Source of the DNA: an uncultured Planctomycetia bacterium
GTDB taxonomy: Bacteria; Omnitrophota; Gorgyraeia; Gorgyraeales; Gorgyraeaceae
Assembly: GCA_964652265.1 (NCBI GenBank)
Contig: CAZZAL010000006.1
Location: 1-53,757 of the forward strand
Length of the DNA: 53,757 nucleotides
Reading direction: 5' to 3'
Shown: positions 1-29,800 of the stretch, in pieces
How positions within the stretch are numbered: the stretch's first letter is position 1
Layout of the letters: the number at the start of each line of letters is the position of its first letter
Made by a program: the position numbers and the translations under genes
The notes under the pieces: generated by a model
What the model saw: only the letters and a program-made list of their open reading frames with translations
Told to the model about the DNA's origin: nothing
The model's database searches: none

Positions 1-370
<370 letters not shown>

Positions 371-387
371 TAATTTGACATAACTCG

Positions 388-454
388 AACCCACAATTTG
401 GCTATATTTACAAAGAGCGAAAAGACAAAAAAAAGGGCATCAAGACGATGCCCT
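388..454 (-). promoter_or_regulatory. rrn leader antitermination elements (boxB-like hairpin, boxA, boxC-like)
   Basis: Hairpin AGGGCATC-GTCTT-GATGCCCT (454-434), then GCTCTTTGTAAA (418-407, boxA-like) and TTGTGGGTT (396-388), in canonical order upstream of 16S. Confidence 0.65.
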
Positions 455-535
455 GTTACATCCTCCCTAACGATATATATAATTACCTTATCAAGGAAAT
501 CTCTTCAATATAAGTACCTCTTTTCGCAACTTGAG

Positions 536-563
536 AGTATATCATACATACGACCAATGTCAA
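536..563 (-). promoter_or_regulatory. rrn promoter P2 (sigma70-type)
   Basis: TTGACA (563-558), 16 nt spacer, TATACT (541-536) with TGn extension. Confidence 0.75.
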
Positions 564-575
564 GAGGTGACATAC

Positions 576-604
576 TTTATACCACTCTGTCCAAAACATG
601 TCAA
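576..604 (-). promoter_or_regulatory. rrn promoter P1 (sigma70-type)
   Basis: TTGACA (604-599), 17 nt spacer, TATAAA (581-576) with TGn extension; AT-rich sequence upstream; tandem with P2. Confidence 0.75.
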
Positions 605-675
605 GTATTAATTTTGAAAAATATTCACCGCAATGTCTAAAGGGGTAACGCCTCGTAAAACAGACTATTGTCTCT

Positions 676-1263
676 TCATAGACTCTGCTTAATACCGGTC
701 TGCGAACCTTTAATAATATCTCCAACTGTTATTCTACTATACTGCAACAAATAAGCCAAGTCATAAACCAAGAATTCATGTGCCTCTGTAGGACGCATTG
801 TCCTGTCAGTATTCTTTAATGTCCATGCGGAAGAATTAGCTATCTCATAAGGTACAACCATGACCGCGCCAATATCATTACCTTTGCGATCATTCAGGCC
901 TACTATGCTTAAATACGCGCCTTTATTGTATCGCCCAGCCTTAATAGGCTGAATCCTTTCCTTAATACCTTGTGTATTAATCCAGCATATCTTTGCTTTA
1001 GGATATGTCTTTTTAATTACATCCATATCTCCTGTATCTAAGTCAGAATATCTTTTTTCATCCACAAAGACAAAATCTACATCTTCGTCGATAGACCCTC
1101 TTTTTAAAACCTTATCTGAGTCATGAGAAATAGTAAAATCAAATCTGAGATTCCCTTTTATCTTCTTACTTTCCAGTTTTGCAATCGAGCCATCTCTATA
1201 TGCTTTAGTCACATCACTTAACGGTGTATCCTCCGAAGTAAAAGAAACTACTTTTATAGGCAT
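676..1263 (-). CDS. Degenerate Cys/Met-metabolism PLP-enzyme large domain; probable frameshifted C-terminal part of 1254..3170
   Basis: VDFVFVDEKRYSDLDTGDMDVIKK..AKICWINTQGIKERIQPIKAG..LSIVGLNDRKGNDIGAVMVV..MRPTEAHEFL parallels the family pattern VFxETPxNPxL..D+..I..VVDNTFATP..QPL..G..SxTK..GxxD.+GG..LSPFDAW but lacks the PLP Lys. The frame is open up to 1284 across an A7 run. Confidence 0.6.
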   Translation of the reverse strand: MPIKVVSFTSEDTPLSDVTKAYRDGSIAKLESKKIKGNLRFDFTISHDSDKVLKRGSIDEDVDFVFVDEKRYSDLDTGDMDVIKKTYPKAKICWINTQGIKERIQPIKAGRYNKGAYLSIVGLNDRKGNDIGAVMVVPYEIANSSAWTLKNTDRTMRPTEAHEFLVYDLAYLLQYSRITVGDIIKGSQTGIKQSL

Positions 1264-3170
1264 ATTATTTTTTTCTCTGGTACTCTAAAAATAACTCTTA
1301 AGAAGAACTCATCAATAGCATCATTTAAAGAACTAGTGGAAAGACCGACATATTTCCCGCTAAAGGCATCCAGGGCTCCTACCTCTAATAAGGTAATAAA
1401 AATCTCCAGTGTGAGAGATGACGGAGTACCTAAGCGTGCATAAAGCCCTCTCCTGGCTGGCTGAAGAGGACTCTTGTCCTCTGATAACTTTAATATACTA
1501 ACAAATATCCCTGACATATCCTTGGCATCCTTGGCGCGCAAGCTAGTGGCATCAGTCAAGGTATCAATTACAGAACTATGATTTCCGCTTATAAGACTCG
1601 AAAGCCAACCATGATGACAGAGCCATGTCTGGGCATCATATTTAGTCACAAGGGTCGCCTTATTTATTATTTTTGCTACATTCCTTATTCTATCATCCTC
1701 GTTATCTATCTTTTCTATCGCATCTTTAATCACTGGCTCGATTTTATATGAATTCCTTACTCTATTTACCACAGGATACTTTCTTATAAGATAGGTTTTC
1801 CCTTCTGAGACATCATTATATTCTGCCATAAAAATCTCATCAAGGAGTCCATAAGGGATATTCTCAGGGTCATGCTCATACTTTTCTAATATTTCAAATA
1901 TAGCGTTCAATTCCCTCAATACATCCCTCGGATCTTCAATACCCACTGACCAGCGGATACCGCTAGAGCTGATACCGCCCTGTTCCTTGTCTTCGTCACT
2001 AAGCGTAATATGCGTTGCGTCTGAAGCCAGATTTAATAAATTACGCACCTGGCCTAAACTCACTGCATGCTCCAGTGTCCTAAAATATCTGAGTAGGTTC
2101 ATGAAGGCAACAGCTTTTTCCCTGCCTCCCTCATGTGGACCAAAATCAAGATATATCATGTGCCCGAAATTATCCATCAGCCTTTTTGCTACATCGTACT
2201 GCGGATGAGACGGATCTCCTGGATAAACCACCTTATCTAAAAGGGGTTGCTTCTTTAACTCCCTGAGATATTTCTCGGCACTAGCATTTTGTATTGCCAA
2301 ACGTAGAGGTAACAAAGGTATGCCATATTCCACTGTTATCTCGGCATCTTTTTCAGTCAAAGGTCTTAAAAAGGTCTTTTTCCTTTGCTTTAACCCCTTG
2401 ATAAAGCTATCTCTGCCAATAAGGACGCCTCCTAAAACATTTCCAGGTCCGCTTAAACCCTTGGTTATGCCCTGCATGACTAGCGTCTCTACGCCATATT
2501 CCTCTGCATACCTCAATGGCTGCATACCCAGTGGCGTTGCAAAAGTATTATCACAGACCAATGTTATATCTCTATCCTTTAAAGCAATTACTTCACAGAT
2601 TTTCTCTACATCAATCACTTTTAAGGTAGGATTTGTAACTGTCTCACAGAACACCAGGACTGTATTTTCATCAAGGTTCCCCTCGACTTCTTCTGAACCT
2701 GCAACATACCTGACATCAAATAATTTTTCTAACTCTGTAAAGAGATTATCCGTACACGCATATGACGGCCTAAAAACAACCAGATTCGCTTTATTGGGAT
2801 CGACTTTACTTTGATCTATCAAATAAAAAATTGCCTCTTTGACAGAACTCATGCCCGTAGAATAAGATACGCCGTTCCACCTGCCTTTTAAATTCCTTGA
2901 TTCGATACCTGCCAGATGCCTTTCTAAAAATTCAACATAGCCTTGGTCTTTATGCTTCTTTTTTATCAACAAATCACGCAATACTATATCTGCAGGTGTG
3001 GTGCCATTGTACTTCTCTCTAAGGCGAGGATATACGTCTTTACCCATCCTGATTCTTAAGCCAGAAACAGCATGTGAATAACCACTTAAACTCAGGATAA
3101 ACAATATAGCTACAACTACCGAGATAGCCCTTTTAACGCTTCTGGTTCCTATATGATACCTATAATTCAT
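1254..3170 (-). CDS. Signal-peptide-bearing Cys/Met metabolism PLP-dependent enzyme (methionine gamma-lyase / cystathionine gamma-synthase family) with start of a second copy
   Basis: STGMSS, YACT, ETVTNPTL, DNTFATP, ITKGLSG (PLP Lys237), YPG..HPQY, AVSLG, IRWSVGIE; N-terminal hydrophobic segment ending SHA; C-terminal YARLGTP..LE segment. Confidence 0.88.
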   Translation of the reverse strand: MNYRYHIGTRSVKRAISVVVAILFILSLSGYSHAVSGLRIRMGKDVYPRLREKYNGTTPADIVLRDLLIKKKHKDQGYVEFLERHLAGIESRNLKGRWNGVSYSTGMSSVKEAIFYLIDQSKVDPNKANLVVFRPSYACTDNLFTELEKLFDVRYVAGSEEVEGNLDENTVLVFCETVTNPTLKVIDVEKICEVIALKDRDITLVCDNTFATPLGMQPLRYAEEYGVETLVMQGITKGLSGPGNVLGGVLIGRDSFIKGLKQRKKTFLRPLTEKDAEITVEYGIPLLPLRLAIQNASAEKYLRELKKQPLLDKVVYPGDPSHPQYDVAKRLMDNFGHMIYLDFGPHEGGREKAVAFMNLLRYFRTLEHAVSLGQVRNLLNLASDATHITLSDEDKEQGGISSSGIRWSVGIEDPRDVLRELNAIFEILEKYEHDPENIPYGLLDEIFMAEYNDVSEGKTYLIRKYPVVNRVRNSYKIEPVIKDAIEKIDNEDDRIRNVAKIINKATLVTKYDAQTWLCHHGWLSSLISGNHSSVIDTLTDATSLRAKDAKDMSGIFVSILKLSEDKSPLQPARRGLYARLGTPSSLTLEIFITLLEVGALDAFSGKYVGLSTSSLNDAIDEFFLRVIFRVPEKKIICL

Positions 3171-3198
3171 ATCAGCTCCTAAGTTTACTTTTAATAGT

Positions 3199-3244
3199 TT
3201 TATAAACTATTATAAATATAACACAAAAAACCTCCTCTTGTCAA
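3199..3244 (-). promoter_or_regulatory. Sigma70-type promoter of the PLP-enzyme gene with conserved 22-nt element
   Basis: TTGACA (3244-3239), 18 nt spacer, TGt-TATATT (3220-3215); TATATTTATAATAGTTTATAAA (3220-3199) is near-identical to 34614-34593; AGGAG RBS before the ATG. Confidence 0.7.
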
Positions 3245-3246
3245 TC

Positions 3247-3290
3247 AAAATAGCTTGACTCGTTTCAGCAATGTTAAAAGTGTCAAGCTA
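3247..3290 (-). terminator. Possible terminator after tyrS
   Basis: Inverted repeat TAGCTTGAC..GTCAAGCTA (3251-3290, includes the tyrS stop) followed by TTTT on the minus strand; the loop is long. Confidence 0.35.
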
Positions 3291-4457
3291 GGACTTGAGG
3301 ATTATCTTTAAAAAGCGTTTTTTGCCGATTTTAATACAGTATTCTTTGGAAGGTTCGAGCTGTAGATCAGGTGTTTTTAACCTGTCTCCATTGACCTCTA
3401 CTGCGCCCTGGTCTACCAGCCTTCTGTATTCGCTCTTACTGGGACATACTCCGTCAGAAATAAGAAAGTCACTAAGCGTTCCTTTGAATATCTTCGTTTC
3501 CAACTTTAACTCTGCAAAAGGATCTCTTTTTTGAAACTTGTTTTCAAAATCCCTACGTGCCCGCAGAGCTGATTTTTCCCCATGATACTGCCTAACTATC
3601 AACTCCGCTAAGCTCTTCTTTGCCTCCATAGGGTGCAGTTTTTTGACACGCTCCAGGTCTTCGTCTGTCAAAAGTTCATAGTAATGCATCATCAATTCAT
3701 CTGATACTGACATGATCTTACCAAACATATCTTCCGGCAAATCATTTATACCTATATGATTACCAAAAGACTTGCTCATCTTCAGGGTACCGTCGAGACC
3801 AATCAAAAGCGGCACCATTATAACCACCTGCTGTTCTTCTTCAAAATCCTTCTGAAGTTCGCGGCCAAGAAGAAGATTGAATTTCTGATCCAACCCGCCT
3901 AGCTCGACATCTGCCTTTAATTTAATAGAATCATATGCCTGGAGAAGTGGATACAGGAATTCCAAAAGGCTTATGTCCTTTCCGGATTTATACCTCTTGT
4001 TAAAATCTGAGCGGGCTAGAAGCTGCGAAACAGTGGTATGTGAGGCAAGGTCTACCATTACATCCTGCAGATGCATTGACTTAAACCATTTACTATTAAA
4101 AACTACCTCTGTCTTTCTTTCATCCAGGATCTTAAAGACCTGTTTTTTATAAGTCTTGGCGTTTTCCTTTACCTCTTTTTCAGTCAAATACTTCCTGGTC
4201 TCAGTCCTTCCGGTAGGATCTCCTATCATGCCTGTAAAATCACCTATAAGAAAGACCACCTTGTGTCCCAGGTCCTGAAAATGTCGCATCTTTCTCAAGA
4301 GCACAGTATGCCCAAGATGTATATCAGGTGCGCTCGGGTCAAATCCCGCTTTTATTACCAGCGGCCTTTTCTTTTCCAGTTTAGCTGTGAGTTCTTTCTC
4401 AGAGATCACCTCTACTGTACCGCGCTTGATTATTTGTAGCTGTTTTTTTATTGGCAT
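3288..4457 (-). CDS. tyrS: Tyrosine--tRNA ligase
   Basis: [38 protein letters not shown]-terminal S4 domain. Confidence 0.98.
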
Positions 4458-6044
4458 TTAATCCTTCTTCTTAAGGCTAAGCCCTATCTTCCGCTCGGTC
4501 TCGTCCACCTTGATCACAACGGCTGAGACCTTATCTCCTACCTTAAAATTATCCTCTAACTTCGCTTGAGGGTCAAGTCCCAATTCAGATACATGTACCA
4601 GGGCCTCAAGGTCTTTTTCTATCTCAACAAAAAATCCGAAACTGGCGATCTTTGTTATGGTGCCAGTGACTGCTGTAGCCAGGCTGTATTTCTTAGCGAT
4701 CTGGGGCCATGGATCAGTCGTCAGTTGCTTTATGCCAAGATTCATCCTCTGGCTCTCAGAATCAACTGCAAGTATCATGACTTCCAGTTTTTGGCCCTTC
4801 TTTAAAAATTCCTTGGGGTTATTGACCTTTCTTGTCCAGGACATGTCATTTACATGGACAAAACCCTCTATCCTTCCTTCTATTTCTATAAAGGCGCCGT
4901 AGTCAGTTAGATTCCTGACCTTGCCCTCGGCCTTTGTGCCAGGCGGAAACTTTTCTTTTATCTCCAGCCATGGATTTGCCTCTATCTGTTTTATACCAAG
5001 AGAAATCTTCTGGCTTTCCTTGTCACAGCTTAAGACAAGCGCTTCGACTATATCACCTATTGCAAGGACATCTGAAGGATTGTTTACCCTGGTGGTCCAT
5101 GAAAGCTCAGAGACATGTACGAGCCCCTCGACACCTTTCTCGAGTTCCACAAACGCTCCATAAGGCATGATATTTACGATCTTGCCTTTTATCTTTGAGC
5201 CAAGTGGATATTTTTCTTCCACATCTTTCCATGGGCTCTCTGTCTTTTGTTTCAGGCCCAACGATACCTTTCCGCTTTGCTTGTCAAAGTTTAATATCAT
5301 TACCTCTACGGTATCTCCTATGGCCAGGACCTCGCTCGGGTGTGAAATCCTTCCCCAGCTCATGTCCGTAATGTGCAGGAGCCCGTCGATGCCGCCAAGA
5401 TCAATAAACGCGCCAAAGTCTGTTATATTTTTTACCAGACCTTTGCGCAATTCACTGACCTTTAGTTCACCGATCAACCTATCTTTGGCTTCGTCCCTTT
5501 CTTTCATTATTGCGTCTTTTCTGGAAAGAACAATATTTTTTCTCATCTTGTTCATCTTTACGATCTTAAACTTCAGGGTCTGACCCATGATCTGATTAAC
5601 ATTACCAAAACCCTTTAAGGCCACGAGAGAAGCAGGCAAAAACGCCTCCATGCCAATATCTACCATAAGGCCGCCCTTTACCTTGCGAGCAACCTTGCCC
5701 TCTACTACATCACCTTCTTTGCACTGATTGACAATCCTGTTCCAGCCCTGTGTCTTCTCAGCCTTCTTTTTTGAAACAACGATCATACCGTCTTCATTTT
5801 CCTTGGATTCCACCAGCACCTCGAATTCATCGCCTATGTTCACGACTGCCTTATCCTTATTGAATTCCGCTATAGGAATAATGCCTTCGGACTTATATCC
5901 GAAATCAACATAGACATCCTTCTTACCTACGGCTATGACCTTTCCCTTTACTATATCACCCTCACCCAGACTACGAAACGTCTTTGCATACGCTGAGGCA
6001 AGGTCAAATCCTTCCTTATCAACCTGCTTCTTTTCTTCACTCAT
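4458..6044 (-). CDS. rpsA: 30S ribosomal protein S1
   Basis: Six S1 repeats (GYKSEG, AFLPAS, DFGAFIDLGGIDGLLHITDMSW, YGAFVELEKGVEGLVHVSELSW). Confidence 0.98.
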   Translation of the reverse strand: MSEEKKQVDKEGFDLASAYAKTFRSLGEGDIVKGKVIAVGKKDVYVDFGYKSEGIIPIAEFNKDKAVVNIGDEFEVLVESKENEDGMIVVSKKKAEKTQGWNRIVNQCKEGDVVEGKVARKVKGGLMVDIGMEAFLPASLVALKGFGNVNQIMGQTLKFKIVKMNKMRKNIVLSRKDAIMKERDEAKDRLIGELKVSELRKGLVKNITDFGAFIDLGGIDGLLHITDMSWGRISHPSEVLAIGDTVEVMILNFDKQSGKVSLGLKQKTESPWKDVEEKYPLGSKIKGKIVNIMPYGAFVELEKGVEGLVHVSELSWTTRVNNPSDVLAIGDIVEALVLSCDKESQKISLGIKQIEANPWLEIKEKFPPGTKAEGKVRNLTDYGAFIEIEGRIEGFVHVNDMSWTRKVNNPKEFLKKGQKLEVMILAVDSESQRMNLGIKQLTTDPWPQIAKKYSLATAVTGTITKIASFGFFVEIEKDLEALVHVSELGLDPQAKLEDNFKVGDKVSAVVIKVDETERKIGLSLKKKD

Positions 6045-6051
6045 AATAGAA

Positions 6052-6864
6052 TTACCCCTCTTTCGTTAGATTTATTTTTTGTGCTACGCTTTTAACCATC
6101 GAATCCGGAGTTGATGCGCCGCTTATGATCCCGGCACACTTCTTACCCTTGAAATACATCTTTTTCAATTCACCAGGTGTCTCGATATGGAAACTCCTCA
6201 CCCCGCTTTCTTTACAGATCTCAAATAACCTTCTAGTATTGGCACTGTTTCTACCACCAACTACTATCATGACGTCGCATTTCTTTATAAGCTCTCGGGT
6301 CAGTCTCTGTCTATGCGCCGTATCATTGCAAATCGTATTAAAAATCCTTATCTCGCTAAAATCCTCGTTCAATACATCCAAGATACCTTTTATATAATTC
6401 GATTTCGTCTGCGTTGTCTGGGATACAACACCTATCTTTTTTGTGTCCTTCCTTTTTCCGGCAATGCTGGAAAGCGCTTTTACCTCAGGATGTTTTCCCT
6501 CGCCAACTATGATTATTTTATAGCCTTCTCTCTTCAGACCCTTTACTATATCATGGGCATGCTTTACAAATGGACACGTGGCATCTACTACTCTCACCCC
6601 TCGCTTCTTTAACTTATTGATTATAGCTATCGAGGCGCCATGCGAAGATATAATAACAGTTCCTTTTTTTATCCTGCCGGCATCCCGTAAGACCTTTAGT
6701 CCTTTTTTTGAAAGATCGCTTACTACCTGAGGATTATGTATTATAGGGTTAAAAGAATAAATCCCTCTTTTATCCTTTGAGCGTTTAAGTGTTTCTTCGG
6801 CTATCTTTATCGCACGCTTTACACCAAAACAAAAACCTGAATGACTGGCTATTTTAATCCGCAT
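6052..6864 (-). CDS. ispH: 4-hydroxy-3-methylbut-2-enyl diphosphate reductase
   Basis: GFCFGVKRA, IIHNPQV, DATCPFV, HPEV, QTT, NTICNDT, SANT, GASTP. Confidence 0.96.
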   Translation of the reverse strand: MRIKIASHSGFCFGVKRAIKIAEETLKRSKDKRGIYSFNPIIHNPQVVSDLSKKGLKVLRDAGRIKKGTVIISSHGASIAIINKLKKRGVRVVDATCPFVKHAHDIVKGLKREGYKIIIVGEGKHPEVKALSSIAGKRKDTKKIGVVSQTTQTKSNYIKGILDVLNEDFSEIRIFNTICNDTAHRQRLTRELIKKCDVMIVVGGRNSANTRRLFEICKESGVRSFHIETPGELKKMYFKGKKCAGIISGASTPDSMVKSVAQKINLTKEG

Positions 6865-7462
6865 CTCTCTTTAATCCAGCGATCGCATCCATTACCTGTC
6901 CAGCAATACGCATATAACACTCTTTCTTGTTTCCCTTTGTCTTCTCAAATTCCATGGGCTTTCCAAAATATACTGAAACGCGCATCATCCTTGGAAACCT
7001 CGAATGTCTGGGCCATGCCTTCATCGAGCCCTTCACATAACACGGCAAGATCTTGACACCTGAGGCATTCTGCAAAAATCCTATTCCAGACTTGGGTGCC
7101 TGCAGATTTCCGTCTCCTGAACGAGTGCCCTCTGGAAAAATAAGGATTGGCTCACCCTGTGATAATTTATTCAAAGCTAGTTTAAAGGCGTTTACATCTC
7201 CAGTCTCACGCTTTATAGGAGAAACGTGTATCCAGCATAACATCTTTGCGAAAGGTCTGAATCTAAATAGTGTGTCGCGGGCCAGATAACTCAGCTTTCG
7301 CGGAGCGCCGATACCGACTATTATAGGATCCAAGAAACTCGCATGATTGGGCGCTACAATAACCGGACTGGCTTTTGGAAAATTCTCCCTCCCGAATATT
7401 CTCAACCGGAAAAATATCTTAAAGAGCAAAAATGCTATAAACCTTGTAAATGTATAAAACAT
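6854..7462 (-). CDS. plsC: 1-acyl-sn-glycerol-3-phosphate acyltransferase
   Basis: NHASFLD and FPEGTRS motifs. Confidence 0.92.
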   Translation of the reverse strand: MFYTFTRFIAFLLFKIFFRLRIFGRENFPKASPVIVAPNHASFLDPIIVGIGAPRKLSYLARDTLFRFRPFAKMLCWIHVSPIKRETGDVNAFKLALNKLSQGEPILIFPEGTRSGDGNLQAPKSGIGFLQNASGVKILPCYVKGSMKAWPRHSRFPRMMRVSVYFGKPMEFEKTKGNKKECYMRIAGQVMDAIAGLKRDAD

Positions 7463-8298
7463 TATCTAACAGAATCCCTGATGGCCTTAGCTTTCTTGAG
7501 TAATCTCAAGAGCTCTGCGTGCTTATCCTTTTTTAATGCATCCTCGATCTTTGATAATTCTTTCTTGAGAAGCTTTATATCCTTAGATATGTTCTTTTTA
7601 TTCGTAATAAAAATATCCTTCCATAATTCAGGTGCTCCGGAGGCAATCCTGGTAGTATCTTTGAATCCCCCTGCTGCCAGTTTTAAATCACACTTTTGGC
7701 AAGCATTGGAAAGTGCCACAGAAACTGCATGCGGCAGGTGACTTAGTCTTGAGGTAACCTTATCATGTTTTTCAGGGCTCATAATCTCCACCTTCATGCC
7801 TAAGGCCTTCCAGAATCTCTTTATCCTGGCAAGGGCCTTTGGATTTGTACAAGGTGATTTTGTCAAAATGCAATGTGCACCTTTAAATAAATCTTTATCA
7901 GCATTCACCACACCTTGCTTTTCAGATCCAGCCACAGGATGGCTGCCTACAAAATCTACCCTACGAGGTAAAATCGCTTCTATCTTCTTTACGATATCCT
8001 TTTTTGTGCTCCCTGCGTCTATTACAATCGCACCTTTTTTTAGATGCCTTGAGATCCGCCTTGCTATATTTATAATCGTCAAGACAGGGGCTGCGAGGAT
8101 AACAAGGTCTGAATCCTTTACACCTTTTTTCAGATCAAGTGTAACAGAATCAACTGCCCCTACCTTTAATGCGCGTCTGACTGTAGAGCGCCTGCGGGAT
8201 ACCCCGATCACTTCTTTCGCTAGGTGTTTCCTTTTTATAGCAAAGCTCAGTGACCCGCCGATCAATCCTAAACCAATTATAGTAACACGTTTAAACAT
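7462..8298 (-). CDS. tyrA: Prephenate/arogenate dehydrogenase
   Basis: [37 protein letters not shown]. Confidence 0.95.
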
Positions 8299-20115: not shown

Positions 20116-23100
20116 CTAAAGATCCGTTCTTTGTTTTTCCGAAGCCTGTATTTTTTCCTCTAGGTTTTCCTTAATCTGTTCTTCAACAGGGCTCTCCCAT
20201 CTTAATACATCTCTAAATGAATCAAAAGAACCAACCCTCTTCATGATACTGCTGTGCTTACCGCCAAAAAACCTATAGATATCACTGCTAGCTTCTGTTA
20301 CGACGTCAAGTATGCCGCCTTCCCGTAAAGAGCCTCTAGCAGAAAAAATAGACTCTTTTAAGCCTAGCGGCCTATTAAAGTCATGCTCCGAGGTAGGTGG
20401 CTGTGGCACTATAAACACTACATAATCAAATATGTTTCTAAAATAAAAGCCAAAATTAGCATACTCCTGTTTAATAAAAGTCACGTCACTTACTTGATCT
20501 ATGCTTTCCTGCAACTTGACCTCATTCATATCAGCTGCTATAACAAACATATCATCTACATCAGTATAAACGTGGTCAAAATACTCCAATGTCCTTTTAA
20601 CGCCACTGCCCGCGCAAAGGTCAATGACAATCTTTGTGTCAGGATTATGCTGTCTGAAGACCTTCAGGTAATCTGCAAAGGAAATTGGTTTAGTAAATAA
20701 CTGTCCACCTTCCTTTGCAAGCTCAACAGCTGCGCCATTGTAAAAAGACAAGTATACATCTGAACCATCAACAACACATCTCCTAATATTTATATGATTC
20801 TTCTCTGCAAATAAGATATCTGCGTCACTAAGATCATCTATGCCTCCAGCAACCAATCTATCATAAATACCTTCTAGGACAGCCAGGTCTAGATTTTTGT
20901 TCAGATCAACTGCATGTCTTGGATCAGTTATGGGAACTTCTGCCTGCGCCAGCTCCTGATTAGACGCCAAGGCATCATTTAGAGGCGCATCCGCTGGTAT
21001 ATACAAAGGTACCTTATATTTATCAGCTGCGGTCATAACCACAGGCAACGTAACGTCTTTAAGGGACTTACGCACATCATCGTCGGTGATCAGGGGTTTT
21101 AACCTTAATTTCTTGACATTGTGGTTGTCCCACTCTGTGCCGCGTTTGAACTGGGCCAGTTGACGCTGCGCATCAGCGCTCATCACAATAGCGCTGATCC
21201 CGTAATCAAAATCTCCCTCTAAAAAGTCATCTAAATAATACTGGATATCCGGGACATCCACGGCCAAGGCCAGGTCTATACCCCCTTCTTCTATGCCAAG
21301 CTCTTTTAAAAGCATGCCTGTGTCTTTGACTTCTTGAACCTCTCTGACAGTACGCAATGTCAGGCCTATCCTACCGGAATAATTGTCGAAAAAGCCCTTC
21401 AATTCTCTTCTCAGGATCTTCAATGCCATCAGATCCCATTTAAATATCTCCTTATCAGGATTAAGGTTTTTCTTCATGCCCCGATTGCCCATCTCAGGGT
21501 TTCCTTCTTTTTTCAATTCGTAACGATGCGCTCCTGGCTTGGACTTTAATAGATTCGAGGTCTCATTGGCGCTTTCCAAAAAGAAACTCTCATTATTCTT
21601 AAGCGCCTCTCTCGCAGGCTGCCTCATAAGATCTAGAAGAACAGCAATATAGTACTTCTTTCCCTGCCCTTTTTGGGCCAGATAACCTTTCTCCTTTAAG
21701 AAACTCTCTATGATGCGTTTCAATTTTATGCTTTCCATGTCCAGTTCCACATTTGAAATCTCGATGTTTATATCATTTAACTTGCTGGCCTTTTTATCCA
21801 TAAGCTCTGCAGGGACTTCTTCGCCGTCCTGACTGCGCTGTACAAGCTCGTTAAAGTCGTTCTCCCACACTAAACGTTTTCCCTGCTTCTCTTCGTATAT
21901 CTCTGTCAACTCCTTTAACGATTGGCTGACATCCAATCTCCCTTCATCATAATCCAGGAACAGCCTGTAATGCATGGGTAAATCGTTGTGCAACTGCGAC
22001 ACACTTATTGCGTTGTAGTCCGAGTGTATCTCCGGAACTGCGTCAGGGTTTATCTCATCATAAATATTATAATGGCGCTCTTTCAAAGCTGTCTTCAGGG
22101 CAGGTAATACCTTGATAAGCTCCTCTGATAATCCCTTCTGATTAGCAGAATTATCAGCCATTTTTATAATATCAAGGGCTATCTGTTCTCTATCCACCTC
22201 GCTGTTTTTATCCCTGGGGAGCTGTAAAAACTGGTGTCCTGCTATATCATAATGCCCATATATATGGTCAAAAAGTGCCCAGATATTCCTGGCTGTGCCT
22301 TCTACGCGCGGTAATGTAAGAGAAGCAGAGTCATAACCCAGGACATAAAGTATAATAGCGCCTACCAGATCAGCAGAGGGCCAGTCTCCGCAATAACCTG
22401 CTGTGATCTTCATGGAAGGATCTTTTAATTTTTCATTGTGACGTCTGGTCTCATTGGCCAAAGTAGCCAACATGCGAATAAGGGATTTGGCACGGTTAGT
22501 AAGGGTGTCAAAGTATGGGGCGCCCATCATCATCCTGTCCACTGCCTTGCTGAATTGCAACTGGTCATTGCCACCTGTTGAACTAAAGCGTATCAATGAA
22601 GCCAGGAAAGGCCTCAGTTCAAATGCCTGGGGTGTTTCTGTCATGATACCCAACTTTACCTTTTCAGGGTCCAGCCCTACGTCTTCGACAACCTTTTTTA
22701 GTTCTACAAACTGTTCTTCATCATAGACTACTGGCGCGAACACGCGTACCAGATAACGATTTTTATCCACAAGATTTTTTATGGCCTCCAGCTGCATCCT
22801 CAAGACCCGCTTATCGTCGAGCATCATGCGTATTCCCCGATATCCTGCCATGGGGTTAAGGTCACGCACAACACGGGAACCAGGCATCTTTTCCAGTTCA
22901 TCGCTCTTCCTGTCGTCTAACCTTATATATATGGACTTGTCCATCTGCTCTATTAATAAAGACAGATATACCTTGTCTTCACCCTTTGCCTTTTCGCGTA
23001 ACTTTCTCAGATTATCCAGATAATAATGCGGGTCTTCTGAAGCATCATGAGAGTTCACATAGGCGTCTGAATAGAGATTCGCCAGTTTAATAGCTTCTTT

Positions 23101-26100
23101 CTGAAGTCCTGGATCAGATATACCCTGGGCCAATTCCATAAAGACCTTTGGCCAGACGCGGAATGTCTCGGCAATGCCCTCCAGGCCCCTGGAAAGTATA
23201 TCTACATAACGCTCTTCTCCGGATAGATAACCGGATGTCAGTTTATCAAAGAACTCTATAAGTTCTGCTTCTTTGGCATTATTAGGGTCATAGGGTGGAT
23301 GAACTGGATCATCTAAATATTCTCTATAGAATTCTAGTCCTGATGTAAATTCTTTCTGCTCTCCATCCTGATGAATGACAATGCGACTATTTTTTCTATC
23401 TTGACTAAGGATAATATGACCTTCTAAAACACTTGGATTAAGAGACGCTATTTCTCCATGGAAAGATAAGGCACTATTAAGCCAGCTACGCTCTGTATCT
23501 GTCAGTCCTTCCTGATCCATCTTTGTTAAAAGTGCTTTGTAGCGATAATTGTCATATTGCAATAAGCCCTCCGGGGCAGCTCCGATAGCACCCAATAACT
23601 GTTCCTCGCGTACCAGGCCTGAGCCATAGAAACTCGGCCAGATCCCACCCAGCGCAAGGGCATTCTGCGCAGTGCTAAGGGCATTCACGTTTAGGCCCAG
23701 TTTAAAACCTTCGGGCAAGATAGGTAATTCCCTGGCGCTAAAATCTTCTCCGACCGGCTTGAGCCTGTCAGAATGATCCCCCTCAAATATAATACCTTTT
23801 GTGGCCACGACTGTTACCTTACGCCCATTGTACAACAGATTTAAATCCGGGAGGCCGGTAACAACCACCCAGCCAAATTCCATGGACATGATCGCTGTAT
23901 GGGATTGTCTTCCTCCAACAAGGGCAATTATTGCCGCTGCCCTGTGCATAGCTGCGTCCATATCAGGGGTGCCTTCTTCGGTAACCATGATCTTTTTGTG
24001 GACCTTATGCCATTCATCGGGCCTGTCTTTAAATGCCAACTGCACAAGGCCAGCAGCAGCACCCCTGCTGTGAAAAGTCGGGCCTTCATAGAGCACAAGG
24101 CCTTTTTCTCTTAACTCAACAACATCTTTATCAGGCATATCCATGTATCTCAAAAATACCACTGAAGAATCCCTCAGGTTCTGACGTGTTTCAGGTCGCA
24201 CCTGGGTATAGATAAATACATATTCATATCTCGGATTACCGGATTTGTCACGGGCAATCCCATCCGGCTGACTCGAATCGTTTACGTATACAGGTCTGCC
24301 CTGGCTATCGCGCCTGATCTTTAAGCCACCTTCAAAATCCTGATACATCCTGTAATACTCATACATAGTCCTTCCTAGGATACCTAAATCACCCAAAAGC
24401 TTATAGTCTGTGGTTACTGGCTTCCCTGCTAATGCATCTGGAAAATCCAGGTCAATGGTGCCGCCTTTCTTTTCTTCACCTTCTATCAGACGCTTAATGC
24501 CTAAGACATTGGGCACTTCCCATGTGCGCCTGTTATCCGAAACCTTGTAATCCACTACCTCGCCTTTAAACCTCATATAGGCATTATCCGGGGTAGACTT
24601 ATTAGCAACAATGGTATTGGTGGCACCTTCCACTAACCCCATATCCACCTGCATGACGCCTGTATTGCGGTTAACACCAAAACCTACGATGCCTATATCA
24701 AAGAAACCCATCTGCTGGAATAAAGAACTCATCTCTACGTCTTCAGAATATATAGGCAGGGGTGGAGTCTGCTGCAGGCGATAATCAATACTACGGAAAT
24801 TAAAGAGTGAACGCTGGTTCGCAAGCCACTCCTCTACAAACACATCCAGGTCTTTATCTTTAACAGGTCCCATCTCTTTATCCTGACGCATGACTTCCTG
24901 TATCAAGGCCTGGAGCACTGTGTTCCAGGGGCCAACAGATACGCCCCACTCAGACTCATCTATATCTACAGGGATACCTGCTTTTTTCATTGCATTAACA
25001 AGCAAGCGAAGCTGTTCCCATGGATCCTTTTCATTTCTAACTTTATACTGCAGGGTATATACATCTATACCTTTATTGTTAAGCAGCTTCATGGTATCCA
25101 GTATCATTACAAAAAGTGACGTATCCTGCCTGCCTGCAAAGGAGGCTGCCTCGCTGTCCTCGCCCAATGCTGAACTGCGTATGGCCAGGATTAGCAAGCG
25201 TAACGGAATATCAAGACGTTCAGCTAGATGCTTAAGGCTTTCCCTCATCTCTTCTACTAGATCCTGCGCTATTTCTGCCTTTTTAGGTCCCAAGAGCTCT
25301 TTATATTGGTCGGAATACCTTCTTATCATCGACAGGTATCTTTTAGTAAACCCAGAATCCTCCATGACATCCTTATCTTTGATATCTGCCTTGGGTATGT
25401 TTTTCTTGGCAGCCAGGCTTTCTTTAACAGAATTAAAAAGCGCAGCCATGTCATCTTTCAGATCAGACGCAAGACGGGTAAATATAACATCGTATTCCGG
25501 ATTAGCACCTATAAGCTTTTCTTTGAATGCCTTTCCTGAAGTGGCAAATGCCGCTAGTGTCAGTGCGCCCGGCGTATGCTGCATCATACCTGTATAAGCT
25601 GTCTTGCCTCCAAATAACGGCGCATCTCTTGCGTCAACCTCATAGTCCCATACAATAGACCTGCCTTTGACCAGGGCCATATCTGCCAGGTATTCGCCTT
25701 CCATGTGATAGGTATCTGTCCTGTCCTTAAATTTATCTGTCATATCTTCACCTTCAGGAGGTGTCTGATATTTATCTACAGCAATAAGATATGGATAGGC
25801 GTTTTTAATCTCTCTGAGCATGTTTTCTGCTTCATCAGTCGAGGTCTTTCCGAATAAACCAAACTCCCTCAGCAAGGCATCTGCTGCGCGCCGGCCATTA
25901 AACGAACGTGTGCGTTCCATCTGGTCGATCAGCCAGAATTTCTTCTCTTCGGTCGTAAGAGAACGGCCCTCCCCCATCACCTTGTCTTTAAGATTGAAGA
26001 GTTTTATGGCATCCTCCAGGCGGTTATAGTTCCCTGTTGGTATACTGACTTGGGCAAGGCGGTTTATGATTTTATTCTGGGCAAAAAGCCCGTTTGCAGG

Positions 26101-26766
26101 CGTATCCTTTTCCCTCAGGTAGAGTTCTGTCAGGGCCTGGGCAAAAAGCCCCATTGTCGCACGCTTAAGACCGAGCTGTAAAAGATATTCCATAAAGGCA
26201 AGTTCGATATATACGGTGTTGGTCTTTTTATCCACCTGGTAGTGACGATTCCCTAATCTGCTGGAAGACACCAATACGACCCGCGTCTTTTCGAGATAAT
26301 CAGCAAAATATTGAAACTTGCCTTTTCCTAAATAACTTCTGAAGAAATTATAAGCCAGGGGAACTATCTTTACATAACGCGGCAGGTCTAATCTGCCTAT
26401 AGGCACATCCTGTTCATTCGGAAACTGTGTTTCAGAGGAAAGCAAAAGATCTCCGTTTTCCAGGATAAACGCGCCTTCATGTTTGGAAAGCCATGTCTTT
26501 TCCCCGTCTAATTTCGTTAAACCTACTTCGTCCTTTTCAATGCGTTCCTGCAGGGCATCCTTATCAAGCGCATAGGCGACTAATCCACCCTTTCCAGGAT
26601 CATAGACATGGACTTTTGTTTTTTCTTCTGACAATTCAAGAAAATCTTTTGCTGTTTCGCTGGTTGCCAGGGGCGGCCTCAAGGTATGTTTTTGGAGAGG
26701 GGCAGAGAATGCAATATTCTGAAATGAAAACACAAACACTAAAAGGATCGAGATGATTTTTCTCAT
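20116..26766 (-). CDS. Signal-peptide-bearing multidomain protein (2216 aa): divergent PEP synthase (ATP-grasp, phospho-His, PEP-binding barrel) + degenerate second barrel + class I SAM methyltransferase
   Basis: FGGK, IRSSALGED..SFAGRQDT, SLFNFRSIDYR, QVRPET, GGRQSHTAI (His956), NPMAGYRG, MTETP, GGNDQLQ, YCGD (Cys1459); second NPEMGNRG segment; IDLCAGSG..LREGG near the C-terminus. Confidence 0.88.
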   Translation of the reverse strand: MRKIISILLVFVFSFQNIAFSAPLQKHTLRPPLATSETAKDFLELSEEKTKVHVYDPGKGGLVAYALDKDALQERIEKDEVGLTKLDGEKTWLSKHEGAFILENGDLLLSSETQFPNEQDVPIGRLDLPRYVKIVPLAYNFFRSYLGKGKFQYFADYLEKTRVVLVSSSRLGNRHYQVDKKTNTVYIELAFMEYLLQLGLKRATMGLFAQALTELYLREKDTPANGLFAQNKIINRLAQVSIPTGNYNRLEDAIKLFNLKDKVMGEGRSLTTEEKKFWLIDQMERTRSFNGRRAADALLREFGLFGKTSTDEAENMLREIKNAYPYLIAVDKYQTPPEGEDMTDKFKDRTDTYHMEGEYLADMALVKGRSIVWDYEVDARDAPLFGGKTAYTGMMQHTPGALTLAAFATSGKAFKEKLIGANPEYDVIFTRLASDLKDDMAALFNSVKESLAAKKNIPKADIKDKDVMEDSGFTKRYLSMIRRYSDQYKELLGPKKAEIAQDLVEEMRESLKHLAERLDIPLRLLILAIRSSALGEDSEAASFAGRQDTSLFVMILDTMKLLNNKGIDVYTLQYKVRNEKDPWEQLRLLVNAMKKAGIPVDIDESEWGVSVGPWNTVLQALIQEVMRQDKEMGPVKDKDLDVFVEEWLANQRSLFNFRSIDYRLQQTPPLPIYSEDVEMSSLFQQMGFFDIGIVGFGVNRNTGVMQVDMGLVEGATNTIVANKSTPDNAYMRFKGEVVDYKVSDNRRTWEVPNVLGIKRLIEGEEKKGGTIDLDFPDALAGKPVTTDYKLLGDLGILGRTMYEYYRMYQDFEGGLKIRRDSQGRPVYVNDSSQPDGIARDKSGNPRYEYVFIYTQVRPETRQNLRDSSVVFLRYMDMPDKDVVELREKGLVLYEGPTFHSRGAAAGLVQLAFKDRPDEWHKVHKKIMVTEEGTPDMDAAMHRAAAIIALVGGRQSHTAIMSMEFGWVVVTGLPDLNLLYNGRKVTVVATKGIIFEGDHSDRLKPVGEDFSARELPILPEGFKLGLNVNALSTAQNALALGGIWPSFYGSGLVREEQLLGAIGAAPEGLLQYDNYRYKALLTKMDQEGLTDTERSWLNSALSFHGEIASLNPSVLEGHIILSQDRKNSRIVIHQDGEQKEFTSGLEFYREYLDDPVHPPYDPNNAKEAELIEFFDKLTSGYLSGEERYVDILSRGLEGIAETFRVWPKVFMELAQGISDPGLQKEAIKLANLYSDAYVNSHDASEDPHYYLDNLRKLREKAKGEDKVYLSLLIEQMDKSIYIRLDDRKSDELEKMPGSRVVRDLNPMAGYRGIRMMLDDKRVLRMQLEAIKNLVDKNRYLVRVFAPVVYDEEQFVELKKVVEDVGLDPEKVKLGIMTETPQAFELRPFLASLIRFSSTGGNDQLQFSKAVDRMMMGAPYFDTLTNRAKSLIRMLATLANETRRHNEKLKDPSMKITAGYCGDWPSADLVGAIILYVLGYDSASLTLPRVEGTARNIWALFDHIYGHYDIAGHQFLQLPRDKNSEVDREQIALDIIKMADNSANQKGLSEELIKVLPALKTALKERHYNIYDEINPDAVPEIHSDYNAISVSQLHNDLPMHYRLFLDYDEGRLDVSQSLKELTEIYEEKQGKRLVWENDFNELVQRSQDGEEVPAELMDKKASKLNDINIEISNVELDMESIKLKRIIESFLKEKGYLAQKGQGKKYYIAVLLDLMRQPAREALKNNESFFLESANETSNLLKSKPGAHRYELKKEGNPEMGNRGMKKNLNPDKEIFKWDLMALKILRRELKGFFDNYSGRIGLTLRTVREVQEVKDTGMLLKELGIEEGGIDLALAVDVPDIQYYLDDFLEGDFDYGISAIVMSADAQRQLAQFKRGTEWDNHNVKKLRLKPLITDDDVRKSLKDVTLPVVMTAADKYKVPLYIPADAPLNDALASNQELAQAEVPITDPRHAVDLNKNLDLAVLEGIYDRLVAGGIDDLSDADILFAEKNHINIRRCVVDGSDVYLSFYNGAAVELAKEGGQLFTKPISFADYLKVFRQHNPDTKIVIDLCAGSGVKRTLEYFDHVYTDVDDMFVIAADMNEVKLQESIDQVSDVTFIKQEYANFGFYFRNIFDYVVFIVPQPPTSEHDFNRPLGLKESIFSARGSLREGGILDVVTEASSDIYRFFGGKHSSIMKRVGSFDSFRDVLRWESPVEEQIKENLEEKIQASEKQRTDL

Positions 26767-26800: not shown

Positions 26801-29800
26801 TTAAGCGTTTGTTATAGCTTCAAACAACGCCTTATCTCTATCAGTATTTAACTTTTCTAAATCAAAACCGCCGAAAAGCACGTCTTTGCCAAAAATAGCA
26901 ATAGCGCTTGTTAAGTCTTCAGGAACTACGCCCCTTAATATGAATTCCTTTTCTATGCCGCTAATATCTACCCCCGGTTTTTCTATAATCTGTAACTCTA
27001 CCTTACCAGTCTCCTTATATTTATTTTTGTAATTCACAAGTTGCTTGTCAAACTCAGCTCTGTCTCTTGCTATTATCATCACTCTGGTGGTCTCTTTGTT
27101 CTGTCTGTCAAGCCAATTATTAAACGGTACCTCATTTCTCCTCAGCTCATCCGCAGGAATGATATATACCTTAAGCTGCTCATTCGAAGCAAGGCTTGTA
27201 GAAAAACCAGCCGGTGCAGCACCAACGGCTTTGAATCCTGTCTGCCCCTTGTTTACCTTTATAACCTCATCCTTGGTCGTTGACAGAACACTCACAACAT
27301 GAGCATCCTCGCCTAACACTAAAAGTTGCCCTTTTTCTTTTAATCTCTTTATAGCACTCTTATACACAGGTATATTAGCTATCAAATCATACTCTTGTTT
27401 TGCCTTTCCATCATCCCCTATAACTTCGCTTCCGTCTTCACGTAAAACCGACTGTTCTTTCCCTTTATAAGGCAAAAACGTATCTTTCCTGTCTCCCAGT
27501 TTTATATCTACTGCGGGAGGTATTCCGTCTTTCGCCAAAAGGCCCATGGAATTTACTATAAAATCCTGGACAGCCTGTTCAGTCATATATCCTTTGACAT
27601 CATCCGTATTATCTTCGTTAGGTACCTTCTTCTCAGGCTGGACAGTCTCTGGGATCTTTTCTGATAATTCTATTATTCTGTCTACCCAATCCTGGCTGTC
27701 AATGCCTCTAAGCTGTGTCATTAAACGTGCTTCAGTTTCATCAAAACCGAATATCCTTGCAATAAATAATCTCAAGTCCACGGCATAAAAGGCAACATTA
27801 AAAGCTACGCTTCTGTCTCCAAAGATATCCTCTATAAACTGTTTTTCTTTATCCAGTCTTGCATATAAGTCTGTGCTCTCTTCTCCTGCCATATCTATAG
27901 CTGCATACCCTGTTTTTTCTTTGTTCCTTGTGGCAAATTCGCTTACTTCTCTGATCTCCACCTGTGTTATCTCTTCGCCAGTTTCCTTATTTCTGTATGT
28001 TACCCTGGCTGCAAATCCTCCCTTTTTATCTCCTTTAGACGGAGAGCATATTGCTACAGTTGCAATACTTTCCCCATCTTTTCTTGCCTTGAGAATCTTT
28101 CCGACCATACTAGCTCTGGGATAATTCAGTATATTGTCGCCATTGCCCGCAGAAAGAATACCGCTTGAATTTTCCAGTAAATCCATAACAAGATCTTTGT
28201 CCATTAGAATAGAAAGAAAGGCCCATAGGTGATTTTCAGCGCACGTAGCAAGATGTCCATCCTTGAACCTCAGCGGCTCTCCTGTCATGGGACCCAGAAC
28301 AAGCCCTGCCTTCTGCATGCTAACATTAATCTGCCCCTTATCCTTGGCTTCCTTATACTCTGTATCCAATAAACCTCTTATACTCCTGTCGCTCTCGCCT
28401 TCCTTTGTTCCATCAACACTTGTAACTACTACTACCTTTGAATTTTTGTTCTGACCAAAGATCAAGCCAATCCTGGCCTGAGCAATGCTGATCCAGCCCG
28501 TAACCACTCTTCCAGCCTTTTCAATTCTTACTTTTAATGCCTTATGAACCGTCTTATGCTGTCCTATTTCTCTCTTTACAGTAGTAGCAGAACCTCCCAT
28601 AAAAGGGACAGAAACTATTTCTCCGCTTTCTATTGCCTGTTTACCAAGTAAAACCTCTGGATTTGATTTATCTTCAGTAATATAATCAAGGTCTTTCTCT
28701 TCCAATGCCTCTACTTTTGCTACTTCCCAATTTTCTAAATCAGGAACCGCCAGCCTCGTAGGTTCTATATCTCTTTCATACAAAGTAAGGGTTCTTTTCT
28801 TTTCACCTGCTGCTTTTTTCTTACTTTCTGTTTTGAGATGAGTGATCTTTTTATCCCATTTATTCCAGTCAACTCCCCTATAAGACAAATACAAATAATC
28901 AGATACGCTTGCAATTATTCCATTAGAGGTGGTTACGGAATATTGTCTATATTCATTTATTTCCTGAGCCCTATCCTGAACCCTATTCAACACGTCCTGA
29001 GCTAAATAATAATCATCAGGTATTCCATTCATGGCTACGCTTGTAGCATAATGCAAAACAGACTGCAGGTTAGCAAAAAACTCTCCATCTCTACAACGCT
29101 CTAACATTTGCCTTGCTAGAGGATTTTCAACTTTATTGGGTAAAAGCGATGGGTGAAGAATCTTATTCGCTGGAAACAACACTATATCTTGTTCAGAAAC
29201 AGGCAAATATACACGACAGTCTTCAACGTCTATTTCTGCGTGATTCAAGCCAAAGAAATTAAACCAGTCATCATTACCTATGGGATTGATCTTTGAAAGG
29301 TCTATCTTGCCTTTTTTTACCAGATAAACATTATTACCGACCACAGCATACTGTTTACCTTTGTGGGATTTAACTTCTACTTTTAATTTCTGTCCAGAAC
29401 CATTCTTTAGCATGACTCCGTCTTTGATATTAGATACATGGATATTTTCTGATAGACCTACCAATGAACCAAGTACGACTTCTAAGCCATTGATTTTTAT
29501 AGGCTCTTTATTTGCTTCAGCAACAGCATTTATTGCTTCCCGCATAATCCCTATCTCCTCATCCTTGATCCTACCTCTATTTAACATCTCCTTTATATTC
29601 TCAGGCAAGGCTTGGCGCTGTGCATTTGTTAAAGCAATGCGAACTTTGTATTGCTTTACATATCCTTTAGTTTTGTCGCTCTTTACCCTTTCAGGCAGCT
29701 CTTCCAGTATTCCGAGCTTAACTGCATCTCTAAATTCTTGTCTAACTGTCCCATCACTATAAGGCCTGTAGACAGTCTTAGAGCCATCTACTTTAAAATC

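Follow-up and report, generated by a model that had tools for sequence, protein, structure and literature searches.

Enzymes of the Cys/Met family that depend on pyridoxal 5'-phosphate (PLP) normally need two subunits to make an active site. The locus described here raises the question of whether one chain can supply both contributions from two unequal copies of the enzyme. It lies on the minus strand, at positions 676-3170 of a 53,757-nucleotide stretch of an uncultured marine Omnitrophota genome (contig CAZZAL010000006.1, assembly GCA_964652265.1; "the window" always means this whole stretch). The genome comprises 1.10 Mb in 34 contigs and is 86.7% complete. Two open reading frames, ORF1 (1254-3170, 638 amino acids (aa)) and ORF2 (676-1263, 195 aa), overlap by 10 nt at this locus and are two pieces of one Omnitrophota gene of about 831 aa. 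The product of the whole gene is probably a single-chain pseudo-dimer of the gamma-family, fold type I Cys/Met PLP enzymes, with one complete site per chain. An earlier reading of the DNA, here called the first-pass annotation, had placed the PLP lysine on the first copy (copy 1) and the trans-acting Tyr/Arg motif on the second (copy 2).

Copy 1 (aa 65-430; 1881-2978, minus strand) contains the large and the small domain of Cys_Met_Meta_PP and lacks the N-terminal arm with the YxRxGNPT motif. The Pfam family PF01053 matched ORF1 at aa 93-424 with 177 bits (gathering cut-off 27), covering positions 63-379 of the 381-position profile, and gave 176-186 bits in the three close relatives P0001-P0003. 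Since the match starts only at profile position 63, the segment bearing YxRxGNPT is absent from copy 1, which bears out the earlier reading. The residues HKDQGYVE stand in place of the arm motif directly before FLERHLAGIE (aa 81), and no substitute for the Tyr and Arg was found in block 60-112. A hidden Markov model (HMM) of the canonical family, made from relatives of 360-430 aa, began at position 62-83 of 393 in all 14 long proteins. The loss of the arm is thus a family trait and not a local accident.

The residues that act in cis are all present in copy 1. In this family the lysine of S/T-x-T-K forms the Schiff base, the Asp of DNTF faces the pyridine nitrogen, a Tyr stacks on the cofactor and an Arg binds the substrate carboxylate (in part PMC9307983). 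In a phmmer search against PDB sequences, K237 (codon 2460-2462), D207 (2550-2552), Y137 (2760-2762) and R406 (1953-1955) were aligned with the residues of methionine gamma-lyases (MGLs). The codons of two further key residues, C139 and S371, lie at 2754-2756 and 2058-2060. Y137, E176, N180, P181, D207, T236, K237 and R406 were invariant across 12 long forms. The motifs named in the first-pass annotation were found in place, with YACT at aa 137, DNTFATP at 207 and GITKG at 234, whose Lys is K237.

The best solved relatives of the protein were MGLs, both by sequence (1e5e, E 1.4e-33) and by Foldseek of a full-length model (E 7.7e-25). The motif Y-[AG]-C-T was observed in the subgroup that includes the window protein (7 of the 12 long forms), while the subgroup fused to serine acetyltransferase (SAT) has YGGT. 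The Cys of Y-x-C-T, which follows the stacking Tyr at a distance of two residues and corresponds to C115/C116 of MGLs, is presumably typical of these enzymes. The closest solved relatives and the Y-A-C-T motif make a gamma/beta-elimination like that of methionine gamma-lyase the most likely chemistry.

Copy 2 is a diverged member of Cys_Met_Meta_PP that consists of the arm and the large domain and stops before the small domain. It makes up the C-terminal ~320 aa of the product (aa ~511-831) and has an Asp instead of the catalytic Lys. Its N-terminal arm (aa 511-583; 1422-1640, minus strand) runs from QTWLCHHG (aa 514, codon 1629-1631) to YARLGTP (aa 577), both at the places given in the first-pass annotation. 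Y577, R579 and G581 are encoded at 1440-1442, 1434-1436 and 1428-1430 of the same strand. The first part of the large domain (aa 584-634; 1269-1421, minus strand) is a helix-strand unit with the pattern LE...LE.G...SxSS, recognised by hhalign and by the fold match. The rest of the large domain is encoded by ORF2 (676-1263, minus strand), as judged from hhalign, VIA-align and the predicted interface residues. In the ORF2 alignments, VDFVFVDE corresponds to v.vf.E..tNP, WINTQG to DNTF with Ile for Asp, and SIVGLND to S.TK with Asp for Lys (codon 889-891). Copy 2 was said to continue in ORF2 without the Lys and to end before the small domain, and both statements held.

The assignment of copy 2 rests on profile and fold comparisons. 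With hhalign, a profile from a 15-sequence alignment of the copy 2 module was compared with the canonical enzymes and matched them with a probability of 94%, E 1.3e-7 and a score of 63.0 over 216 columns. Module positions 104-365 (aa 533-794 of P0001) were paired with canonical positions 24-244, and the arm with positions 24-60. This placed YARLGT opposite Y-s-R-x-x-N-P-T and INTQG opposite DNTF, with another residue at the Lys position. Twenty column shuffles and one reversal reached a top score of 18.3 with E of at least 0.21, so that none of the 21 controls came near 63.0. Compared with the family's own copy 1, the module matched with a probability of 98% and E 2.5e-13 over 205 columns, with K237 opposite a conserved Asp and D207 opposite an Ile. 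When the two halves of P0001 were compared by self-BLAST, the best match was collinear but not significant (E 0.45).

Folded alone, the copy 2 module reached a predicted local distance difference test score (pLDDT) of 66.7. Among the top matches listed by Foldseek for this model, all were Cys/Met PLP enzymes, the best being 1i41_A (E 4.5e-9). In VIA-align the module matched the cystathionine gamma-synthase (CGS) 9vsm_A with Z 17.1 and a root-mean-square deviation of 4.4 over 228 residues, model residues 81-383 lying on chain residues 7-258. Other family members gave Z 15-16, while generic fold-type-I enzymes gave Z of about 13-14.7 and matched only from model residue ~150 on. The fold match ends at chain residue ~258, and the protein itself ends about 40 aa further on, before the small domain. 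The similarity to the PLP large domain that the first-pass annotation expected from aa ~511-638 joined to the 195-aa ORF was therefore found at the level of both profile and fold.

A two-chain prediction places copy 2 on copy 1 in the manner of a second subunit. The full-length AlphaFold model of P0002 had a pLDDT of 75.2 and a predicted template modelling score (pTM) of 0.79. We predicted the complex of copy 1 (aa 65-432) with PLP and copy 2 (aa 505-815) as two chains. The score was 0.80, compared with 0.36 for the best of three controls; 116 of 157 solved complexes attain this mark, as do 2 of 215 mismatched pairs, and it measures likeness to the catalytic dimer, not binding. The runs agreed in at least 95% of the contacts and the partner had a pLDDT of at least 73. 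Residues 104-111 and 139 of copy 1 were predicted to contact 783-790 of copy 2, and residues 263-275 of copy 1 to contact 613-620 and 653-657 of copy 2. In the model these are homologous elements that have swapped places, a predicted pseudo-two-fold pattern. Residues 578-579 belong to the predicted interface. So does TLKN of ORF2 (window positions 811-822), which adjoins C139 there. The predicted contact of C139 with N787 of copy 2, next to K786, resembles what we take to be the MGL arrangement, where the Lys-Asp pair of the neighbour stands beside the Cys.

Twelve long forms were aligned, the distant ones sharing 26-43% identity with P0002. In copy 2, Y577, R579, G581, E596, S611, V701 and D704 were invariant across this alignment. 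Y577, R579 and G581 were the sole invariant cluster in an otherwise poorly conserved arm.

The copy 2 module is very rare. Among 1.84 billion representative proteins, a profile search with it returned 13 with E up to 0.001. Eleven of these are 787-7941 aa long and two are short (414 and 189 aa), carrying the module without a copy 1 domain; none of the 13 is a canonical enzyme of ~390 aa. A Pfam scan of eleven related proteins found PF01053 in nine, starting at profile position 54-72 and directly before the module. The module thus follows a truncated PF01053 domain in every Pfam-scanned protein that contains copy 1 (9/9), and the other two, P0123 and P0131, are short and without copy 1. P0121 (7941 aa) and P0128 (5182 aa) were scanned with our own HMMs only. 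Among 39 genomes of the order the module was present in one, the window's own, and among 401 sampled genomes of the phylum in six including the window's own, all from one class. A genome contig search with P0001 found no relative. A metagenome contig search with patterns drawn from copy 1 kept 80 loci, all of them canonical enzymes of ~30% identity.

In a tree of the ~208 shared columns, copy 1 and copy 2 grouped together against 30 canonical sequences, on a branch with 100% support in the Shimodaira-Hasegawa-like approximate likelihood ratio test (SH-aLRT); the tree carries a long-branch warning and its canonical sample was drawn randomly from the nearest relatives of copy 1. Identical subgroups recur in the copy 1 and the copy 2 subtree. 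With its joint branch and matching subgroups, the tree fits a single duplication that preceded the diversification of the family, with complementary loss afterwards.

In the C. freundii MGL, Tyr58* and Arg60* of the neighbouring subunit are described as hydrogen-bonding the PLP phosphate, and Tyr58* as bonding Lys210 (PMC9307983). The corresponding Tyr58' and Arg60' of MetY are described as lining the substrate pocket (PMC8191291). We infer that the Omnitrophota protein would use the same residues within one chain. A Cys/Met PLP enzyme would have undergone tandem duplication and then complementary loss. Copy 1 would have kept the cis parts (K237, Y137, D207, S371, R406 and both domains) and lost the arm that reaches into the partner. 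Copy 2 would have kept the arm with Y577-x-R579-x-G581 and the large domain as a docking scaffold, and lost the Lys, the DNTF Asp and the small domain. It would most likely pack on copy 1 like the second subunit of the catalytic dimer and lend Y577 and R579 to the PLP phosphate and the substrate pocket at K237, which would give one site per chain. The composite site proposed in the first-pass annotation gains support in silico from the homology of copy 2, the 12/12 conservation of Tyr, Arg and Gly, and the presence of residues 578-579 in the predicted interface.

The first-pass annotation took the fusion of the two ORFs as given; in this genome the gene is really split. The break point is an A7 run on the minus strand at 1268-1274 (T7 on the plus strand) within gag aaa aaa ata, and the junction reads gag aaa aaa ata ata tgc cta taa, with the ORF1 stop TAA at 1254-1256. 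Upstream, the ORF2 frame stays open through ...STREKNNMPIKV, and shifting by -1 within the A7 run joins it to ORF1 to give the 831-aa product. A search with aa 430-638 found the three close relatives P0001-P0003, which have 832-837 aa, are 70-93% identical and run unbroken across the ORF1/ORF2 junction, where they read ...RIPEKENN(K/G)PIKV.... The long forms P0004 (787 aa) and P0005 (925 aa), which are less closely related, are also unbroken there.

The frameshift allele of the window was identical, with 0 differences and 0 gaps, in Logan contigs from three samples, with word depths of 5 to 8.1. All three samples come from one study; two are possible sources of the window, and X5, the third, carries no flag as a source. 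At 1271 the contig of a more distant relative parts from the window sequence. A hand translation of the loose end of this contig gives ...IFRIPEK, and a G interrupts the run there. We infer that the window allele arose by loss of that G, which would have created the A7 run. Because of this G, the break appears to be a one-base loss and not a miscounted homopolymer. In run X8, a low-depth contig of a relative (depth 7) omits one base at window position 1398 and has CCT inserted behind 1476. The net frame of its arm region is changed, which may be an error or another broken allele.

With the gene split by a one-base loss, full activity in this genome would require that two polypeptides reassemble or that translation slips by -1 on the A7 run, and this allele may be impaired. 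The start ATG of ORF2 is three codons past the break, and its overlap of 10 nt with the ORF1 stop would allow coupled re-initiation. The A7 run followed by AUA could permit a -1 slip that restores the 831-aa product.

Several results weigh against a composite site in a single chain. ORF2 alone had no match in Pfam and NCBIfam, even at E up to 10, phmmer of P0001 against PDB sequences matched copy 1 only, and the best ESM Atlas score for aa 431-833 was 0.78, below the useful range. In the AlphaFold model of P0002 the arm was below pLDDT 50 at aa 520-544 and 558-581, and Y577 itself was not among the named interface residues of the two-chain prediction. Since homodimers of the family have been solved, the score of 0.80 may reflect the memory of the model. 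As for the substrate, the NCBIfam equivalog model for methionine gamma-lyase, TIGR01328, gave 163 bits against its cut-off of 549.7, and all 25 listed NCBIfam models were far below their cut-offs. ORF2 has no leader and no GGAG-type ribosome-binding site, which most long genes of the window have. In addition, the close allele P0254 (696 aa, in the 90% cluster of P0002, on a 14.5-kb contig) ends with ...KRGLMKV inside copy 2 and is a second, independent truncation within this copy. Together, the window frameshift and the P0254 truncation mean that the distal part of copy 2 may be dispensable, or that the gene may be decaying in this clade.

The alternative that survives best is that the gene is a recent pseudogene in this genome. 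The last 195 aa would then be cut off, the pieces would not reassemble and the enzyme would be dead or crippled. We regard this as quite possible, though not as the likely state of the gene. The same frameshift allele in three samples, one of them not flagged as the source, agrees with it. So do the missing ribosome-binding site and leader of ORF2, the truncation of P0254 and the absence of the module from the 38 other genomes of the order. However, ORF1 and ORF2 are both free of further stops. In a relative-rate count, amino-acid changes specific to the window were not raised in ORF2, with 11 in 186 columns compared with 18 for P0001 and 6 for P0002. This means that the break is recent or that ORF2 is still under selection. 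The possible re-initiation at the overlapping ATG and the possible slip on the A7 run also speak against a pseudogene.

Copy 2 could also be merely a structural, regulatory or docking part. Its Y-x-R-x-G would then be kept for its own fold or for another ligand, and copy 1 would be self-sufficient or would pair with a second copy 1. That copy 2 is invisible to Pfam and phmmer, that its arm is modelled at low confidence and that two alleles are truncated within it would all be in keeping with such a role. Nevertheless, we consider it unlikely. Y577, R579 and G581 align exactly with the canonical trans-acting motif, and copy 1 has no replacement for them. Moreover, copy 2 is predicted to occupy the face through which copy 1 would form a canonical dimer (including the phosphate-loop region 104-111 and C139), so that in the model the docking of copy 2 would block a copy 1/copy 1 dimer.

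It is very unlikely that the split is an assembly or sequencing artefact of a real 831-832-aa ORF with A8 or AAAGAAAA at 1268-1274: the break does lie inside a homopolymer and all close relatives except P0254 are intact, but the separately assembled samples, within the one study and with two of them perhaps the window's source, share A7 at the depths given above, and the ...PEK of the relative, read by hand, would place a lost G in the run. Two other explanations were rejected. ORF2 is not an independent gene of an unknown family, as it is collinear with the C-terminal parts of relatives that span the junction. A different genetic code was also discarded, since there are no in-frame stops that need recoding and the break is a change of frame.

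The protein carries two further parts, a leader and a linker domain. The N-terminal leader (aa 1-34; 3069-3170, minus strand), read from the sequence, has a positively charged start and a hydrophobic core AISVVVAILFIL, followed by SHA and then VS; in full it is MNYRYHIGTRSVKR-AISVVVAILFILSL-SGYSHA/VS. It resembles a Sec signal peptide or signal anchor, and all 13 long-form relatives whose N-terminus is intact begin with a leader of this kind. The linker domain (aa 431-510; 1641-1880, minus strand) is a small beta-sheet with helices according to the AlphaFold secondary structure (pLDDT 57-90). It is kept within the family (IPY..L..IFMA, P466), and L443, M448 and P466 are invariant in the 12-protein alignment. 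No Pfam or NCBIfam match was found for aa 431-638 alone, even at E up to 10.

The neighbours of the gene are tyrosyl-tRNA synthetase (3288-4457) and ribosomal protein S1 (4458-6044). Those homologues of the synthetase with 71-77% identity that bear an organism name are assigned to Candidatus Omnitrophota or Omnitrophica, and one to Candidatus Gorgyraea. Directly downstream is the 5' part of a 16S rRNA (1-370, minus strand; Rfam RF00177, 273 bits), which is cut by the end of the window, and a tRNA scan of window 1-8000 found none. The genome, at its completeness of 86.7%, had no other strong PF01053 gene and no SATase_N match. At 48926-49321 (minus strand) a 406-aa frame matched PF01053 weakly (35.7 bits, profile 71-196). 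Rather than a second Cys/Met enzyme, this frame probably encodes a different PLP enzyme of fold type I.

The window encodes two more long proteins of a similar build. The ORF at 20116-26766 (minus strand, 2216 aa) contains PPDK_N, PEP-utilizers and PEP-utilizers_C, and the ORF at 26801-34543 (minus strand, 2580 aa) contains PGM_PMM_I and II. In both, cytoplasm-type enzyme domains stand behind leaders in the style of the PLP protein, ending with ..AFSAP and ..AYGAP, and one of them is then followed by TLRP. A short motif, TLRP, ALRP or LRV, was also observed about 5-15 residues past the leader in P0005, P0121, P0004, P0253 and others. This motif may serve in sorting or processing and be peculiar to such long proteins of Omnitrophota. 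According to a 2026 preprint, a signal peptide or transmembrane helices occur in 94% of 916 long proteins from Omnitrophota, and phosphoglucomutase modules recur (10.64898/2026.06.07.730766). The words "pyridoxal" and "Cys_Met" were absent from the text of this preprint in a word search.

Copy 1 and copy 2 also occur together in much larger proteins. P0121, with 7941 aa, comes from an Omnitrophota metagenome-assembled genome and is named proline dehydrogenase family protein by NCBI. A frame of at least 2906 aa that is cut off by both ends of its contig (L092, G369:C86:1-8719), from one of the six module-bearing genomes of the phylum, contains the PLP cassette together with GDPD, DUF2779 and a LOG-like domain (Lysine_decarbox). 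Three of the eleven Pfam-scanned relatives also carry SATase_N and Hexapep of serine acetyltransferase upstream. In P0122, P0124 and P0126 the cassette follows the serine acetyltransferase behind a leader, and their copy 1 has YGGT instead of Y-x-C-T. This suggests a fused pair of an O-acetylserine-forming and a sulfhydrylase-type enzyme. The 7941-aa protein, the contig-cut frame and the serine acetyltransferase fusions are our examples for a tentative and rather doubtful reading of the family. An obligate dimer would have become a self-sufficient single-chain cassette, which could then be placed behind a leader and within very long multi-enzyme proteins. Instead of a housekeeping cytoplasmic enzyme, it would belong to a metabolic machine outside the cytoplasm or attached to the surface, and this machine would process sulfur amino acids taken from a host or prey.

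If the composite site is correct, the protein is a natural single-chain version of a family whose active site normally needs two subunits. The clean split, with the Lys on a copy without the arm and the arm on a copy without the Lys, makes the role of the trans-acting Tyr and Arg testable in one polypeptide. It would also illustrate a route from a dimeric enzyme to a portable module, offer a template for the engineering of single-chain methionine gamma-lyases, and supply a defined enzyme cassette among the long multi-enzyme proteins with leaders that are still poorly understood in Omnitrophota.

Some elements of this arrangement have precedents. A paralogue without the Lys that completes the site of an active fold-type-I partner is already known. 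In the glycine decarboxylase P-protein, made of alpha and beta chains or of fused halves, a half without the Lys is paired with a half that has it, in one site. Of these proteins, 1wyt_A was among the fold matches of the copy 2 module (Z 13.1). To our knowledge, neither the P-protein nor serine palmitoyltransferase (SPT) shows a reciprocal loss of a trans-acting arm by the active half. In SPT, made of LCB1 and LCB2, a Lys-less paralogous half is likewise paired with a Lys-bearing fold-type-I half to form one site per pseudo-dimer (PMC3794620). The Omnitrophota protein differs from both, which belong to other subfamilies with other chemistry, lack a leader and do not form part of giant multi-enzyme proteins. 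In SerTA of Serratia sp. ATCC 39006 (Ser4/Ser5), a Lys-less paralogue is likewise described as completing the site of its active fold-type-I partner (PMC11726168). However, SerTA is encoded by two separate genes and belongs to the sugar-aminotransferase class, whereas the Omnitrophota protein is one fused chain of the Cys/Met gamma-family. Unlike in SerTA, the active copy of the Omnitrophota protein has itself lost the part that the dead copy would supply.

The literature searched, including word searches of Omnitrophota papers, gave no description of a single-chain Cys/Met gamma-family form with reciprocal loss. The features for which we found no description are the single chain, the reciprocal loss, the leader and the use as a cassette in very long proteins. 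With the canonical PF01053 enzymes (CGS, cystathionine beta- and gamma-lyases, O-acetylhomoserine sulfhydrylase and MGL), copy 1 shares the fold and the cis residues. Those enzymes are chains of ~390 aa. Four of them assemble into a homotetramer made of two catalytic dimers, and each dimer has two equivalent sites. The Omnitrophota protein has the N-terminal leader and the 80-aa linker domain in addition and reaches no NCBIfam equivalog cut-off. Since its arm and its catalytic body are on different tandem copies, only one site per pseudo-dimer is possible in place of the two equivalent sites of the canonical dimer.

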